Shown here: one piece after another, positions 31,767-38,314 of the stretch
Layout of the letters: every line of letters begins with the position of its first letter
Position numbering within the stretch: the stretch's first letter is position 1
Sequence record: OQ599310
Strand: one strand, 5' to 3'
Length of the DNA stretch: 64,000 nt
Origin: Escherichia phage 55
Position numbers and translations under genes: made by a program
The notes under the pieces: generated by a model
What the model was told of the DNA's origin: nothing
The model's input: only the letters and a program-made list of their open reading frames with translations
The model's database searches: none

Positions 31767-32402
31767 ATGAAAACTACTCCTATTACTATCGCTATTGACG
31801 CAATTATAAAACAAGCTTCTTCTTTGGCCGCTATGGCCAAAGTAATTAGTCAAAACCCTGCTCGTTATAATGCTATTCTAGAAACTCTTCGACGCCCAGG
31901 ACTTAGCAATTATGAAAGCCGAGTAATTATTACAGGTGTTGGTAAGAATGCTAATATTGCAACTAAAGCTTCTGAGACATTTGCTTCACTCGGTATCCCA
32001 AGTATGTACTTGAACACCGGGCATTATTCTCACGGTGATGCAGGATTCATTGCGCCTAATGATGTGTTGATTCATATTAGTCGTTCTGGTAAAACTGAAG
32101 AAATGATAGGCGTGGCTAAGCATCTTAAAATGATTCGACCGAACGTCAAACAGATTCTGTTGCATTGTAACCCAGACATTCCACAAGAAAATGAAGCCCT
32201 TTTTGATTACTCTTTCTGTACAGGCATCGCGGTAGAGGTTGATGAGAATTCTCTGGCTCCGACCATGTCCACTACATTGTTGTTAGCGCTTATCGATACG
32301 TTTGCTATCAACCTTTCGTCTGAACGTGGATTTACCTCTAATGACTTCCTTAAGTTCCATCCAGGCGGTGCACTAGGTGCCATGTTACGAGGCGAGCAAT
32401 GA
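31767..32402 (+). CDS. single-domain SIS sugar-phosphate isomerase, D-arabinose-5-phosphate isomerase-like (KdsD/GutQ family)
   Basis: ITGVGKNANIATKASETFASLGIPS...HGDAGFI...ISRSGKTEE...LAPTMSTT...FHPGGALG tracks the KdsD SIS domain motifs. Confidence 0.7.
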   Translation: MKTTPITIAIDAIIKQASSLAAMAKVISQNPARYNAILETLRRPGLSNYESRVIITGVGKNANIATKASETFASLGIPSMYLNTGHYSHGDAGFIAPNDVLIHISRSGKTEEMIGVAKHLKMIRPNVKQILLHCNPDIPQENEALFDYSFCTGIAVEVDENSLAPTMSTTLLLALIDTFAINLSSERGFTSNDFLKFHPGGALGAMLRGEQ

Positions 32403-32583: not shown

Positions 32584-34269
32584 ATGAAAAAAGCTGTTAT
32601 TCTTGGTGCTGGATTAGCAACTCGTTTATATCCAATTACTCACCATATTCCTAAGGTGCTTGTTAACTATAAACAAGACACTATTCTGAGCAATTTGTAT
32701 ACAATTTATTCTGACCTTGGCGCAGATGAAATTATTGTAGTAGTTCATTCAAAATTTGCTGAAACTGTTCGAGCTTATTGTGAGCAAGAAGGGTTCAATG
32801 TGACTATTCGTACAGTTGATGAAGCGTATGGATCTGCTTATGCTCTTGCTAAATTACACAAAGATTTAGACGGCCATAATGTAATTGTTAACTGGTGTGA
32901 TATTATTCCTGATTTTGGTTCATGGTCTTGGAATGTCAACGCAATCTATGTTAAGGGTGATGAATGTCGATATAATTTCGACGGTGAAAATATCACTAAC
33001 GTAGGTTCAACAGGCGGTAATGTTGTAGGAATTTATCAGTTCAAAGACTGGGAATTCTATATGGGTTCTACCGATGAGGAAATTCATGAATACTGCAAAG
33101 GACGTGATTTCGTAGAATTCCTTTACAGCGGCGCATTCAATAAATCAGAGCTTATGAATATAATTGATTTAGGTGATATGCCTAAACTTGAAAAAGCTCA
33201 TGAAGTTCGTGAACTTAATCGTAGTTTTAATGCAGTTGAAATTGGTGAAGAAACTGTAACTAAATTCGCATTAACCGAACAGGGACGAGCTCTTCAGAAA
33301 GATGAGATTTCATGGTATTTGAAAGTGAAATCAGATTCAGTTCCTCAGTTAGTTTCTGTTAATGAAAACAATTTTGAAATGGAACGTATTAAAGGTAAGC
33401 CGGCATTTGAATATATTAAATCCAAATCAAGTCTTGCTCGTCCACAAATTGTTGATGCAATTTTAGATGCACTGAAATTCAGCACAGACACGTATTTTGT
33501 AAGTCCTGAAACTGTTCGTCGTGATTTCACTAAAGAATTCTATACGAAAGTTATTGATCGTTGTGAAAGCATTCAACCATTGATTGATTCATTTGGTAAA
33601 ATCACACATGTGAACTACACTAAGATTGGACGTCTGAAGCCAATGTTGAAACAAGCTTTAGAACATCTTATTCGTTATCATAACCGTTCTCAGGGACAGT
33701 ACTCTGTTATTCATGGTGACCCGAACTTCAGTAATACTATGATTACTGATAACGGCGAAGTCAAGTTTATCGACCCTCGTGGATATTTTGGCGAAACCAA
33801 GATTTACGGGCCAAAATTGTATGACGAAGCTAAAGTGCTTTATGCTGTTTCAGGTTATGATGAATTCAATGCTAATCCGACCTGGGGACAGTTTACTATT
33901 GATGAAACAACTTGTAATGTGACTATTAACATCAATCCATTAATTTACAAATATGGAAAGATGAGTTCGTTTAACGAGTATCATCATTTGGCGGTGGCAA
34001 TTATCTGGATTGCATTAGGTGGTTATTTCAAGAATAATCCACTTAAAGCGGTAGCCGCATATTATAAAGGTATGGAACTTCTGACTAAGCAATTACGTAA
34101 CATGGGCCGTGTACTTCAAGACGGCTCTATTAGTTATGACGTAGCAGAACCTGTAACGGCTACTCTGATTACAAAAAATCCTGGTAAATGGGTACTAACT
34201 GATAAAGAAACTGGTGTTTCCTATCGTCCAATCGGTGGCGATATCACTCACCAATGGGAACGAATCTAA
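32584..34269 (+). CDS. bifunctional sugar-1-phosphate nucleotidyltransferase / sugar kinase
   Basis: N-terminus AVILGAGLATRLYPIT (sugar nucleotidyltransferase G-x-G-x-R-L motif); C-terminus HGDPNFSN...IDPRG (APH/choline-kinase-like catalytic loop). Confidence 0.65.
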   Translation: MKKAVILGAGLATRLYPITHHIPKVLVNYKQDTILSNLYTIYSDLGADEIIVVVHSKFAETVRAYCEQEGFNVTIRTVDEAYGSAYALAKLHKDLDGHNVIVNWCDIIPDFGSWSWNVNAIYVKGDECRYNFDGENITNVGSTGGNVVGIYQFKDWEFYMGSTDEEIHEYCKGRDFVEFLYSGAFNKSELMNIIDLGDMPKLEKAHEVRELNRSFNAVEIGEETVTKFALTEQGRALQKDEISWYLKVKSDSVPQLVSVNENNFEMERIKGKPAFEYIKSKSSLARPQIVDAILDALKFSTDTYFVSPETVRRDFTKEFYTKVIDRCESIQPLIDSFGKITHVNYTKIGRLKPMLKQALEHLIRYHNRSQGQYSVIHGDPNFSNTMITDNGEVKFIDPRGYFGETKIYGPKLYDEAKVLYAVSGYDEFNANPTWGQFTIDETTCNVTININPLIYKYGKMSSFNEYHHLAVAIIWIALGGYFKNNPLKAVAAYYKGMELLTKQLRNMGRVLQDGSISYDVAEPVTATLITKNPGKWVLTDKETGVSYRPIGGDITHQWERI

Positions 34270-34655
34270 TGCACCGTGTAGAAAACATGCTTAATCTTTG
34301 TTTTGATGTCGATGATTGTATAACAGAGTGGAATAACAATCGTGATTACGTGAACTTCAAACCAGACGTCGAAATGGTGTCTGCCATTAATGCCTTGTAT
34401 GATGCAGGGCATACCATAACGCTTTACACTGCTCGCGGTATGAAGTCAGTAGGTCCCGGTCGTATAGCAATTGACATTCTCCCGAGTCTGATTCAGAACT
34501 TGGAAAACATTGGCTTGAAGTACCATAATTTGCTAACACATAAACCAGTATATGATTGGATTATCGACGACAAAGCTATGCGTCCTGACGAATTCAAAGC
34601 TCTTATGAATAAAGGCGAATTCGAAACATTTAAATCATATAAACCGAATCTATAA
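34269..34655 (+). CDS. HAD-superfamily phosphatase
   Basis: motif I FDVDDCIT, motif II TLYTAR, motif III K (LTHKP), motif IV WIIDD; TAATG-coupled start. Confidence 0.6.
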   Translation: MHRVENMLNLCFDVDDCITEWNNNRDYVNFKPDVEMVSAINALYDAGHTITLYTARGMKSVGPGRIAIDILPSLIQNLENIGLKYHNLLTHKPVYDWIIDDKAMRPDEFKALMNKGEFETFKSYKPNL

Positions 34656-34709
34656 TAATTTAAGTAAGACCTGCAAAAACCATCGCATCAATTAACGCGA
34701 GATGCAAAA

Positions 34710-35870
34710 ATGAACACTTTTAAAATCGGAACGAATTTTGATTTAGCTCTTCTTGATAAAATCGTAGAGCTCAATAAAACCTATCCTAATAGCTTGATAA
34801 ACGAAGTATATGGCTCTACAAGAGAAATGGCTTTTGTAGCAGCCAGACCTGATTTTAGGCTTCCTGACGTTGACAAAAAGATGTTAGAAGACTACGTTAA
34901 ACGTTGTAACGAATTAGGTATTTGCTTTAACTATACACTCAACACGATAAATCCTGGTTCAAAAAGAGAACTAGTTGAGTGGAAGAAGAAAGCTATTCAG
35001 GATTATGTTCAGTATCTTTGGTCAATAGGCGTATGGCGTATTACTATCGCTAACCCTGTTGTTATGGAAATTGTTCGTGAAGTCAATAAAGATATTGAGA
35101 TTGAAGTTTCAACAATTCTACATGTCGATGCTGTAACTCAAATCAAATACTTGCACGACCAATATAACATCAAAAAAGTCTGTTGCGGAATTCATAAGAA
35201 CCGTTCAGTTTCTTTCCTGAAGCGTGCAGCAGAGTTTTGCAATAAGAACAATATAATATTTGAAGTTCTTGTAAATGAGTTCTGTTCTAATGCTGGTAAA
35301 GGGTATACAACACATTGTAGTTATCGTGACTCTTGCTATATTTTCCATAGTACTGATGTTACCGCTGATGATGCTAAATCCTTAAATGGATATCCAATGC
35401 AGCACTGTATTAAAGCTCGTGATACAGATCCATTTAACTGGTTGAGAACTCGTTTTGTTCGTCCTCAAGATTTGAAACTTTATAATGATATTGGTATCAC
35501 TCAATTCAAAGTTTCAGGACGTACAGGTAGCACAGACTACATTTTGAAAGTTCTTGAAGCATACGCTTCTGAAAAGTTTGAAGGTAATTTGTTAGAACTG
35601 TGGAAGCCTTTAGAGACTATTTTCACTCTTGAAAACGAAACTGAGTTTTCACATACAGTAAATATTGAAACCTCTTTGTTAGATGGCTTTTTAGAAAAAA
35701 GGTGGTTCAGACATCCAGATTTTGATTGTGCTAATGAAATCTGTGGGTCAACGTGTACATATTGTGAAAGGTATTATAAACGTCAATTATCTAAAAACGG
35801 GTTAGCAGAAAACTCCATATCTATTATTGATATAACTAGCTCTGATGACGCTTTGAGATACCCGGAATGA
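34710..35870 (+). CDS. hypothetical enzyme with C-terminal Cys cluster (possible metal/Fe-S site)
   Basis: 386 aa; C-x4-C-x3-C-x2-C (CANEICGSTCTYC) near C-terminus plus internal Cys cluster; no confident family assignment. Confidence 0.55.
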   Translation: MNTFKIGTNFDLALLDKIVELNKTYPNSLINEVYGSTREMAFVAARPDFRLPDVDKKMLEDYVKRCNELGICFNYTLNTINPGSKRELVEWKKKAIQDYVQYLWSIGVWRITIANPVVMEIVREVNKDIEIEVSTILHVDAVTQIKYLHDQYNIKKVCCGIHKNRSVSFLKRAAEFCNKNNIIFEVLVNEFCSNAGKGYTTHCSYRDSCYIFHSTDVTADDAKSLNGYPMQHCIKARDTDPFNWLRTRFVRPQDLKLYNDIGITQFKVSGRTGSTDYILKVLEAYASEKFEGNLLELWKPLETIFTLENETEFSHTVNIETSLLDGFLEKRWFRHPDFDCANEICGSTCTYCERYYKRQLSKNGLAENSISIIDITSSDDALRYPE

Positions 35871-36106
35871 TTTCTAGAAAAAGTTTTAATTATAAACTTA
35901 ACGAAGAGATTTTGACTATGAAACTGAACACTAACGAACAAATTCTTAAAAAGGCCCTTATGGGCCTGTTTGAAACCAAAGCGGCTAAAGTGATTAAAGA
36001 ACCTGTTCAATTGGAATACTACACTGATGCATTCCTTCATAGTGTTCTTGGAAGTATAGATTCTGAAGCTTTACGTTATATCAACATTGCCAAGAAATTC
36101 AAATAA
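35867..36106 (+). CDS. hypothetical small protein
   Basis: ATGA-coupled ORF; alternative internal ATG at 35918. Confidence 0.45.
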   Translation: MISRKSFNYKLNEEILTMKLNTNEQILKKALMGLFETKAAKVIKEPVQLEYYTDAFLHSVLGSIDSEALRYINIAKKFK

Positions 36107-36148: not shown

Positions 36149-36865
36149 ATGGGAAAACATAACACAATGAAATATATCAAAGCCGCAGATTTTCAAACCG
36201 CATTTAAAGCAGTCAATCGTGAAATTTTAGAAAACCCGGAATTCGTAACCGATTCTCGTATTGGACGTTGTAATGAAATTGGGTCTATGACAGTAGTTGT
36301 TGACAATCCATCATCATTCAAAATGACCGACCCACGTATTAACCGCATCTCTTATGAATATGCCGAAGACTTCTGGAAGTTTATGATTTCTGGTGGTACT
36401 GATGCAGAAGAAGCGTTTAAGGCATATCCTAATGTCGCTAAATTTATTTCTAAACCTAAATCAGACGCTTTGCCTGCAAACTTCAACACTTTCTACGGTC
36501 CTCGCATTGCGGCCCAATTACCAGCTCTTCTAAAAGAACTTAAAGAGAAACCTAACTCTCGAAGAGTTGTGTTCCAAATTCTAGAAAGTTCTGATCAGGC
36601 TTTGCTTGATTCGGACGAAACACTTGAATATCCATGTACTGACTCAGTAACTTATTATATTCGTGATGGTAAGCTTTATACCCACTGCCATATGCGTTCT
36701 CAGAACTGTGCTGTTGTTATGCAGTTGGATTTTTATCTCCAAGGAAAATTACTTCATTATATCGCTAACGAATGCGGTGTAGAAGTTGGTGATTATACTC
36801 ATACCATGGTAAGTGCCCATGTGTTTGAACGTGATTTTGATTATGTTAAAGGATTCCTTGACTAA
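36149..36865 (+). CDS. 42: dCMP hydroxymethylase (thymidylate-synthase fold)
   Basis: KPNSRRVVFQI and PCTDSVTYYIRDGKLYTHCHMRSQNCAVV align with T4 gp42 NPDSRRGIMIY / MCTNTVQYLIRD...NMRSNDVV as recalled; N-terminus divergent. Confidence 0.75.
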   Translation: MGKHNTMKYIKAADFQTAFKAVNREILENPEFVTDSRIGRCNEIGSMTVVVDNPSSFKMTDPRINRISYEYAEDFWKFMISGGTDAEEAFKAYPNVAKFISKPKSDALPANFNTFYGPRIAAQLPALLKELKEKPNSRRVVFQILESSDQALLDSDETLEYPCTDSVTYYIRDGKLYTHCHMRSQNCAVVMQLDFYLQGKLLHYIANECGVEVGDYTHTMVSAHVFERDFDYVKGFLD

Positions 36866-37764
36866 TGGCTATTTTCCGCGTACCAATCTTGAGTATGCGG
36901 TCTTATGAAACTGGACAGTATGCTATCCTTAAGGATGGCAACTTCCAACTTCATTTGCACCGTGCTAATCCAGGTGATGTGATTACATATCCACGTAATG
37001 CATCTGATATTAAAGAATGCGAACGTCTTTTCCCAGAATTTAAGTTTGTTCCATTATGGTATAAAGATAACGCGTATAACACTCGTAAATATTTCTGGTC
37101 TGAAAATGAATTTGTGGTTGATTCATTAATTGCTTATTATGATTGTGATTTTCTAATCACAGATATCACCGGATATGACGGCGCTTTTGATGTTGAATTC
37201 AATTTCAATATCACTGCAGACCCTAATAAACCACGTTTTTATATTGACGAATTCTTAAAAACCGATATGTTGTCGGTTAATCGTTCACTTCAAACTACTG
37301 TGTTGAATGAACGTCAAAAAGAAGTGCTGGTTAACGCAGGTGCAGATGGTAATAAGATTATCGTAACGCAGAAAGTTATACGTCCTTCCATCATGCAGCG
37401 TCTTGTAGGTGATTTGGCCCCTATTCATCTAGATGGTATTTTTCATCCATTTCGAATTAGTGACCCATGCTATCGTTTTGAACAAGTGGTTGAATGTGCA
37501 ATTCAATTAGGTCAACCGCTTTATATAACCGATCCAAATAATAGTTTCGACAGAAATAAGTATCCTGAAGAAGCGCTGATTCGAATTTTTAAACCAACTA
37601 AAACTGAGTACTATCAAATTCTTAAAGGACGACCGAAGATTCAATATTTCGAAAATCCTGAAGAAGTATTCCATCCAGGTCTTGGCGAGTTCATCTACTT
37701 TAATGCTTTAATTTCTTCGCCGTATAATATACCTAAATACGAAGATGTCGTAATCGAGGAATAA
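36865..37764 (+). CDS. hypothetical protein (299 aa) at the T4 beta-gt locus
   Basis: TAATG-coupled to gene 42; no family motif recognised; not similar to T4 beta-gt as recalled. Confidence 0.6.
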   Translation: MAIFRVPILSMRSYETGQYAILKDGNFQLHLHRANPGDVITYPRNASDIKECERLFPEFKFVPLWYKDNAYNTRKYFWSENEFVVDSLIAYYDCDFLITDITGYDGAFDVEFNFNITADPNKPRFYIDEFLKTDMLSVNRSLQTTVLNERQKEVLVNAGADGNKIIVTQKVIRPSIMQRLVGDLAPIHLDGIFHPFRISDPCYRFEQVVECAIQLGQPLYITDPNNSFDRNKYPEEALIRIFKPTKTEYYQILKGRPKIQYFENPEEVFHPGLGEFIYFNALISSPYNIPKYEDVVIEE

Positions 37765-37765
37765 A

Positions 37766-38314
37766 ATGGCTAAAATTATTTTAGTAGATGGCCCAGATAA
37801 TGCCGGTAAAACAACTTTCATTAATGACATAATGGAAATTAGTGAAAGATACGTAAAGATTGATTTCCCTAAACGAACAGTTGATGGACGTTTCGATGTT
37901 AAGTCTCGAAATGAAGTTGGTTGTTTCGAAACGATGTTGAATTATTTAGACCCTACTAAGATTTATCTGTTAGACCGTGGATATATTAGTAACTGGGTTT
38001 ATGGACGTATTCGACAAGATGCGGACTCTGTTCTTGATGTTTATGAGCAGGATTATGTTCGTCTTTGCCAAAACCATGATGTGTTCACAATTATTTTAAC
38101 ACGTAACGAAATGACTGAAAGTTTTGAAGACGACCTTATTACTTTGTCTTCATTCGGTTTTAATACAGTCATTTCACATTTTGAAGAGTTTGCAATTCAT
38201 AACAAAATCCAAACGTATCAATTACTTAATCATGATGGTGCTAACAAAGTTATAGGATTTAATGCAAGCGAACGTAATGGTTTGATTATAGAAATCATCA
38301 AATGGGCTCGTTAA
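37766..38314 (+). CDS. P-loop kinase-like protein
   Basis: ILVDGPDNAGKTTF Walker A near N-terminus, typical of small (d)NMP/nucleoside kinases. Confidence 0.5.
   Translation: MAKIILVDGPDNAGKTTFINDIMEISERYVKIDFPKRTVDGRFDVKSRNEVGCFETMLNYLDPTKIYLLDRGYISNWVYGRIRQDADSVLDVYEQDYVRLCQNHDVFTIILTRNEMTESFEDDLITLSSFGFNTVISHFEEFAIHNKIQTYQLLNHDGANKVIGFNASERNGLIIEIIKWAR

Follow-up and report, generated by a model that had tools for sequence, protein, structure and literature searches.

The window analyzed here is the whole 64,000-nucleotide stretch of DNA from Escherichia phage 55 (sequence record OQ599310), to which all positions below refer. The region of interest shares 98% identity with the genomes of Mosigvirus phages (PhAPEC2, p000v, and further relatives of RB69), and all the genes described here lie on its plus strand. 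They begin with a SIS-domain arabinose-5-phosphate isomerase of the RB69 gp55 type (31767-32402), a bifunctional sugar-1-phosphate nucleotidyltransferase/kinase of the AfhE or RB69 gp52:53 type (32584-34269), and a HAD phosphatase of the AfhF or RB69 gp51 type (34254-34655; phrog_1238), which scores 50.5 bits against TIGR01689, a model whose own cut-off is 162; the roles of the latter two are taken from PMC13326640. The gene under study follows at 34710-35870, an ORF with an ATG start that encodes a U32-family protein of 386 aa orthologous to RB69 gp50. Its stop codon overlaps the start (ATGA) of a 79-aa ORF (phrog_8601; 35867-36106), and two genes downstream of it lies a TS homolog (36149-36865; PF00303), the flavin- and O2-dependent 5-hydroxy-dCMP synthase of the RB69 gp48 type (PMC13326640). 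DNA arabinosyltransferase 1 of the RB69 gp46:47 type (36865-37764; 99.3% identical to the RB69 ORF046/047 region; PMC13326640) and a thymidylate-kinase-like nucleotide kinase of the RB69 gp45 type (37766-38314), related to the Tmk cluster, complete the series. Promoter and terminator scans of the locus gave results no better than those on shuffled sequence.

The DNA modification to which this cassette belongs has been described for RB69, whose DNA carries arabosylated 5-hydroxycytosine (Lee et al., 2026; PMC13326640). According to the same paper, gp48 makes the base as 5-hydroxy-dCMP, binds flavin, and incorporates 18O from O2 (He et al., 2026, being cited there for in vitro proof of O2 as the oxygen source), UDP-arabinose synthesis and transfer to DNA are the jobs of neighboring genes, and the arabinosyltransferases act on DNA. 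The published pathway from ribulose-5-phosphate to UDP-arabinofuranose is complete without the U32 gene (PMC13326640), and every published step is already assigned to other genes. Since RB69, which has the U32 gene, and DLP3, which does not, carry the same arabinosyl-5-hydroxycytosine (PMC13326640), no extra chemical step needs it. A 5-hydroxycytosine derivative is also the only non-canonical base reported in these T4-like phages.

The gene itself is known and widely annotated. Most GenBank records call it a “peptidase,” and Lee et al., who cite both He et al. (2026) and Mahler et al. (2025), list RB69 gp50 in their Table 1 alone, under the label “Sugar or heterocycle reductase” and with 5d88 given as its fold match, the protein being absent from their text and experiments (PMC13326640). 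It is not mentioned in the 2018 RB69 paper, the Shewanella phage Thanatos paper, or the Durham collection paper; the Thanatos authors stated that they could not suggest where the hydroxyl group comes from. No functional assignment was found in the accessible literature, in which our search also returned no paper linking a phage U32 protein, prephenate, and 5-hydroxycytosine.

The protein is no orphan but belongs clearly to the U32 family. Its catalytic domain (aa 94-286, positions 34989-35567, +) matches Pfam PF01136 (Peptidase_U32) at 42.2 bits against a gathering cut-off of 22.4, and the protein matches phrog_5757 over its full length. A profile of the phage family aligned with the U32 domains of E. 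coli TrhP, RlhA, UbiU, and UbiV over residues 43-288 with an hhalign probability of 98.8% (E 7e-17); when the E. coli paralogs were compared singly, RlhA ranked first (97.5%, E 8e-12), followed by TrhP (96.2%), UbiU (92.9%), and UbiV (9.3%). In the AF2 model (pLDDT 93.7), the predicted structure is a TIM barrel of the U32 type, and the top match in fold comparison was 5d88, the U32 protein Mk0906 of Methanopyrus kandleri, which is 247 aa long, 14% identical, and devoid of the C-terminal Cys-cluster extension. This match came through fold comparison only, as phmmer with the protein and hmmsearch with the family profile returned nothing useful from PDB sequences. Family membership and, in the model, the fold can be regarded as directly established. 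The original prediction, which a model had made from the sequence, described exactly this 386-aa ORF but could not place it in a family, noting a loose and weak likeness to TIM-barrel Fe-S enzymes of the U32 type; the Pfam match, the profile alignment, and the fold comparison turn that likeness into an assignment.

Within U32, for which Kimura et al. distinguish 12 subfamilies, the phage protein belongs to a distinct family whose members are mostly ~360 aa long and make up 1,187 representative clusters (E up to 1e-3), and it fits none of the narrower family definitions. Its sole NCBIfam match was a weak one to the UbiU equivalog NF047963 (18.5 bits against a cut-off of 440), and a search of the window found neither a UbiV- or UbiT-like partner nor a second U32 gene, which sets it apart from UbiU. 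The NCBIfam models for TrhP and RlhA gave no match, the TrhP alignment being limited to the shared U32 core. The architecture of RlhA (DUF3656 plus a C-terminal Cys region) is likewise not that of the phage protein, in which PF01136 stands alone in 386 aa, and hhalign found no homology between its C-terminal region and the essential Cys region at the C-terminus of RlhA (probability 0.9%).

Both Cys groups that had been noted in the original prediction, an internal one and a C-terminal C-x4-C-x3-C-x2-C, are read in the sequence and are conserved in homologs. Internal Cys residues occur at positions 158, 159, 177, 192, 203, 209, and 233, and include the motif C192-x10-C203-x5-C209-x23-C233 (35283-35408, +). 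The C-terminal cluster lies outside the U32 domain, where the DNA at 35727-35765 (+), tgt gct aat gaa atc tgt ggg tca acg tgt aca tat tgt, is translated as C340-ANEI-C345-GST-C349-TY-C352. Residues C158, C192, C203, C209, C233, C340, C345, C349, and C352 are invariant in 121 homologs of at least 46% identity. R46, R165, K267, and R271 are invariant too and might line a pocket for phosphate. Among 129 more divergent members (to ~27% identity), C192, C203, and C233 are kept in 99-100% and the four C-terminal Cys in 93-95% (93-100% overall for the latter), with C209 and C158 falling to ~62% and C177 to 19%. Because of this conservation across the 121 and 129 homologs, the pattern is not a product of chance. 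A radical-SAM reading of the C-terminal CX3CX2C was tried and rejected; there was no Radical_SAM match at E up to 0.1, and such a motif is expected near the N-terminus of the barrel, whereas here it sits in a C-terminal extension outside of it.

The internal motif is the proposed [4Fe-4S] site, as suggested by its conservation and its alignment to TrhP and RlhA. A CX6CX15CX3/4C motif is common to most U32 families, and UbiU (C169, C176, C193, and C232) and UbiV (C39, C180, C193, and C197) each bind a [4Fe-4S] cluster (Pelosi et al., 2019; PMC6747719). In the phage protein, C203, C209, and C233 align with Cys that bind such a cluster in UbiU/UbiV or are essential in RlhA, matching C170, C177, and C197 of TrhP and C169, C176, and C196 of RlhA (“HC203-SYRDS-C209-Y” to “LC169-VAYSGQ-C176-Y,” and “QHC233” to “QAC196” of RlhA). 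Cys 1, 2, and 4 of the motif are therefore present and aligned (C203-x5-C209...C233), and the canonical third Cys, at the position of RlhA C192, is a proline (P229). A family-specific insertion carries the invariant C192, which is the obvious candidate for the fourth cluster ligand. In RlhA, the C-terminal C580 and C611 are required besides the Cys of the U32 motif, and the C-terminal CX4CX3CX2C of the phage protein may be a second metal site, holding either an Fe-S cluster or zinc. By analogy with the UbiU-UbiV pair, we speculate that a second cluster in a single-subunit enzyme could stand in for that of the partner subunit. That the protein binds Fe-S at all is suggested by homology and gene context.

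Characterized U32 proteins have been tied to O2-independent hydroxylations that need prephenate, and none is a peptidase. RlhA (YdcP) is required for 5-hydroxycytidine 2501 in E. coli 23S rRNA and needs prephenate and Fe-S biogenesis. TrhP (YegQ) is required for the prephenate-dependent, O2-independent formation of ho5U34 in tRNA, for which the O2-dependent TrhO acts as backup. UbiU/V replace the flavin monooxygenases UbiI/H/F under anoxia, with a requirement for chorismate mutase activity, and prephenate is the proven oxygen-atom donor for the UbiU/V pathway, described in 2024 as the first organic O-atom donor. In vitro hydroxylase activity has been directly reconstituted for no U32 protein.

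Chorismate mutase is the prephenate-forming enzyme, and genes encoding it recur next to the phage U32 gene. In Serratia phage LC53 and Enterobacter phage Entb_45, a type II chorismate mutase (44.6 and 40.9 bits, respectively, against a Pfam cut-off of 27) lies between the U32 gene and the TS homolog. By tblastn, this mutase was found in 54 records of isolate phages, all from T4-like phages of Enterobacterales or Shewanella, and in those records annotated under the match it adjoins a “peptidase” and/or a “thymidylate synthase.” It is present at 17 of the 45 viral-contig loci with a U32 gene (12 of 15 T4-like and 5 of 30 divergent ones, described below) and at 4 of 12 genome loci. At two metagenomic loci (L050 and L063), the direct neighbor of the U32 gene is instead a DAHP-synthase-chorismate-mutase fusion, a protein that joins the first step of the shikimate pathway to the prephenate-forming one. 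The window, when searched, contained no chorismate mutase, so that in this Mosigvirus prephenate would need to come from host PheA/TyrA. The 79-aa ORF was considered as a diverged mutase and rejected, as neither Pfam and BLASTP nor hhalign and a custom HMM gave a match; moreover, in related phages (L018, L020, and L026) this ORF has the U32 gene on one side and a true chorismate mutase on the other, which shows it to be a separate small gene.

The 45 viral-contig loci comprise 15 from T4-like phages and 30 divergent ones, the latter with U32 proteins of 40-55% identity from non-T4-like phages with DnaE-type polymerases, and 7 kb was examined on each side. Within this distance, the TS homolog is present at all 15 T4-like loci and at none of the 30 divergent loci, and no TS-like gene was found among the other neighbors of the latter (hhalign probabilities <1%). 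A homolog of the arabinosyltransferase remains at 22 of the 30 divergent loci (hhalign 99.7% between subsets), as does the nucleotidyltransferase-kinase at 15, with 28-30% full-length identity to the window protein. Also kept are the SIS isomerase, a KdsC-type phosphatase, Tmk, MazG (whose weak similarity to the T4-type dCTPase, at 59%, allows its use at the family level only), dUTPase, and DnaE, a typical order being primase, MazG, Tmk, transferase, U32, and DnaE. This order is that of a T4-style pre-replicative modification module in which U32 fills the hydroxylase slot. The neighbors of the U32 gene are nucleotide-pool enzymes (Tmk, MazG, dUTPase, dCMP deaminase, NT5C, and dNK), and the gene adjoins DNA-precursor or DNA-glycosylation genes at 41 of the 45 viral loci, a neighborhood pattern that is directly observed. 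In a second context, the gene order is GP88, a guanylate-kinase-methyltransferase fusion, an unknown protein, and U32, which suggests that members of the family feed other nucleotide modifications.

The divergent clade was also found in GTDB genomes of Erysipelotrichales, Oscillospiraceae, Lachnospiraceae, Romboutsia, Gastranaerophilaceae, Tannerella, Phocaeicola faecalis (an isolate), and a few others, with the proviso that host labels of MAGs can err. These host taxa are mostly obligate anaerobes. At the 12 genome loci, no TS homolog lies within 7 kb of the U32 gene, which usually adjoins the same arabinosyltransferase and sugar-activation genes as at the 30 divergent viral loci. At the opposite end of the oxygen range, the arabinosyltransferase occurs in 348 phage records, 57 of which are from Acinetobacter, a strict aerobe. 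For the U32 gene, 221 phage records were found, of which none falls below 80% identity and none is listed from Acinetobacter. Acinetobacter phages and Dhakaviruses thus have the pathway but neither U32 nor the mutase. DLP3 and Dhakavirus JS98, which infects E. coli, both have the full cassette without U32 or mutase, which makes the U32 gene, with or without chorismate mutase, an accessory module immediately upstream of the O2-dependent hydroxylase; the gene is in turn absent from T4-like phages that lack the 5-hydroxycytosine cassette. As Dhakaviruses infect E. coli and yet have no U32 gene, the correlation with host oxygen is imperfect and confounded by phylogeny.

The published hydroxylase uses up O2, but the enteric hosts of these phages live for the most part in its absence. 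We consider it probable, if narrowly so, that the U32 protein is a single-subunit Fe-S enzyme providing a prephenate-dependent, O2-independent route to the 5-hydroxycytosine nucleotide; its use of prephenate, its substrate, and the level at which it would act (nucleotide or DNA) are read from homology and gene context. In the scheme that we propose, dCTP would be hydrolyzed to dCMP by the phage dCTPase, and under anoxia the Fe-S cluster(s) of U32 would oxidize the pyrimidine ring, which would be hydroxylated at C5, most simply in a conversion of dCMP to 5-hydroxy-dCMP. The hydroxyl would come from prephenate, which would decarboxylate to phenylpyruvate as in the scheme proposed for UbiU/V, and 5-hydroxy-dCMP would then pass through kinase and polymerase to arabinosylation on DNA, as in the published route. 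In air, the same hydroxylation would be carried out by the flavin-dependent TS homolog. Phages of obligate anaerobes would have no hydroxylase other than U32, whereas T4-like phages of facultative anaerobes would use it as the partner for low oxygen, similar to the host pairs UbiI/H/F-UbiU/V and TrhO-TrhP. More broadly, and more tentatively, with chances that we would put a little short of even, a dedicated single-subunit phage U32, often accompanied by its own chorismate mutase or DAHP-synthase-chorismate-mutase, may make 5-hydroxy-pyrimidine deoxynucleotides from prephenate without O2, acting alone as hydroxylase for DNA with glycosylated bases in many phages that infect obligate gut anaerobes, and as a low-oxygen partner of the flavin/O2 enzyme in T4-like enterobacterial phages.

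Each of the known systems resembles this proposal in part. RlhA, the best single-sequence profile match, is tied to C5 hydroxylation of cytosine, and its Cys lie in the U32 motif and a C-terminal region, the same two-site layout as in the phage protein. However, it is a 653-aa protein with DUF3656 and a ribosomal-precursor substrate, compared to 386 aa and a predicted DNA-precursor substrate in the phage, where the C-terminal Cys cluster is non-homologous and the third motif Cys is replaced. TrhP and TrhO form a pair of a U32 and an O2-dependent enzyme for one pyrimidine C5 hydroxylation, the pairing that is proposed here, with the motif Cys of TrhP aligned to those of the phage protein; they differ in that the substrate is a tRNA uridine, that TrhP has a C-terminal extension absent from the phage protein, and that the O2-dependent partner is a rhodanese rather than a flavin-dependent TS homolog. 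UbiU and UbiV are U32 proteins with demonstrated [4Fe-4S] clusters, paired with the flavin- and O2-dependent UbiI/H/F, but they work as a heterodimer of two U32 proteins with the lipid-binding factor UbiT on a prenylated phenol, whereas the window holds a single U32 gene. The synthases RB69 gp48, DLP3 gp80, and that of HY126 belong to the same cassette and make the product proposed for U32, with an unrelated fold and by means of flavin and O2; their role is experimentally proven, while we infer that of U32.

The same chemistry could also take place on the polymer, with cytosine being hydroxylated in newly replicated phage DNA instead of dCMP, given that the closest characterized relatives, RlhA and TrhP, act on nucleic-acid polymers and the arabinosyltransferases likewise act on DNA. 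We regard this as unlikely, although worth bearing in mind, since the compact phage protein lacks the extra domains of RlhA and TrhP, its gene is surrounded by those of nucleotide-pool enzymes, and full replacement of cytosine would be easier at the precursor level. As specificity is not readable from sequence and the GP88 context points to other nucleotide modifications, a prephenate-dependent hydroxylase might instead serve another substrate, such as dUMP, a second base position, or a host metabolite (e.g., a quinone precursor during takeover). This appears rather improbable to us, in view of the single non-canonical base reported in the T4-like phages concerned, the low UbiU equivalog score, and the lack of UbiV- or UbiT-like partners in the window. 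The notion of an RNA hydroxylase, i.e., a phage enzyme similar to TrhP or RlhA that modifies host or phage tRNA or rRNA and thereby tunes translation, draws on the ranking of these two as the best-scoring E. coli paralogs and on the tRNA genes that T4-like phages carry. It is quite improbable when set against the prevalence of DNA-precursor and DNA-glycosylation neighbors, the missing NCBIfam matches and C-terminal domains of TrhP and RlhA, and the absence of U32 from T4-like phages without the 5-hydroxycytosine cassette.

Two further readings give U32 no part in hydroxylation. The first, in which the protein reduces a sugar or heterocycle or performs some other redox reaction toward the arabinose donor, would agree with the Table 1 label of Lee et al. 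(2026; PMC13326640) and with the location of a putative TIM-barrel Fe-S protein at the end of the sugar-activation genes, and it comes near to the further step in sugar or nucleotide modification envisaged in the original prediction. Such a step is not needed in a sugar pathway that is complete without the gene, and DLP3 and JS98 keep the sugar genes with no U32. To our knowledge, no U32 protein is a reductase. The model also has no place for the chorismate mutase and DAHP-synthase partners, and its probability seems to us as low as that of the RNA enzyme. Even less credible, to the point of being barely worth entertaining, is a genuine peptidase or collagenase, for which the historical family name and the database annotations speak; characterized U32 members are no peptidases, and both the invariant Cys and the setting among genes of nucleotide metabolism point to a redox enzyme. 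Neither reading explains the mutase and DAHP-synthase partners or the substitution of U32 for the TS homolog. From the original prediction, what carries over into the hydroxylase interpretation is the (still putative) Fe-S cofactor, the TIM barrel, the redox chemistry, and the link to DNA modification, and what falls away is the lack of a family and the extra sugar step.

If the hydroxylase interpretation is true, the phage protein would mark the first case of a U32 hydroxylase at work in DNA metabolism, and the first in which the substrate is small and soluble. Prephenate-dependent hydroxylation would then reach beyond quinones and RNA modification into viral DNA. A mononucleotide substrate would make it the most tractable system for the study of the mechanism, and in vitro reconstitution of U32 chemistry could become possible. 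The modification would be made without oxygen in the gut, where an O2-requiring hydroxylase cannot work, and the presence of chorismate mutase and DAHP-synthase genes in phages would be accounted for by the need to supply the cofactor. A large unrecognized set of phages with hypermodified DNA would then be predicted in anaerobic microbiomes, with a bearing on restriction evasion, phage therapy, and metagenome sequencing.

As a measure of constraint, the median identity of the U32 protein across T4-like genera is 85%, compared to 88% for UvsX, 80% for the TS homolog, 71% for a DNA polymerase fragment, and 66-68% for the transferase, kinase, and phosphatase.

In two of the phage loci compared with the window, the U32 gene is immediately adjoined by a phage-borne gene encoding a DAHP synthase fused to a chorismate mutase (L050, 8079-9197; L063, 5931-6959). 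These fusions look like auxiliary metabolic genes, which would drive flux through the shikimate pathway to prephenate. In the window, the U32 stop codon is overlapped by a small ORF on the plus strand (35867-36106, 79 aa, phrog_8601), which is kept in Mosigvirus, Pectobacterium phage PM2, Yersinia phages, and others, and in some phages lies between the U32 gene and a downstream chorismate mutase gene. We considered this ORF as a chorismate mutase itself and rejected it, as it is unrelated to that enzyme, and a search for a family match to the 79-aa product found none. Its product could assist the U32 enzyme as an accessory factor.

The arabinose-5-phosphate isomerase gene is present in the window (31767-32402) and in phage DLP3, whereas Dhakavirus JS98 (L057) lacks it; JS98 also contains neither U32 nor chorismate mutase, and therefore the accessory gene content of the cassette differs between E. 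coli phages. In several T4-like genera, the HAD phosphatase and U32 genes are separated by an inserted gene annotated as a "putative endonuclease," which probably encodes a homing endonuclease (e.g., Serratia phage LC53, L009 4352-4990; cluster 23 in L016, L019, L020, and L022); it is absent from the window. Within the 54-nt gap 5' of the U32 gene of the window, TATAATAA (34651-34658) resembles the T4 late-promoter core, TATAAATA. We do not claim it as a promoter, because shuffled sequence yields promoter-like sites at least as often as this region does.

A second conserved context of the U32 family was found in L003 (5135-9098) and L066-L070 (e.g., L070 3044-7137), in genomes binned to anaerobes. 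Here U32 is preceded, in order, by GP88 (PF17338), a guanylate kinase-SAM methyltransferase fusion of ~440 aa, and a ~270-aa protein with weak likeness to archaeal 8-oxoguanine DNA glycosylase (E 0.0035). This conserved association suggests a nucleotide or DNA modification in which hydroxylation is followed by methylation, possibly yielding a 5-methoxypyrimidine. Further, a second, more distant U32 paralog is encoded ~5 kb 3' of the first in L003 (13227-14360) and L060 (12224-13357), and that in L003 lies beside two genes, one for a radical-SAM/SPASM protein and one resembling a nucleoside deoxyribosyltransferase gene.
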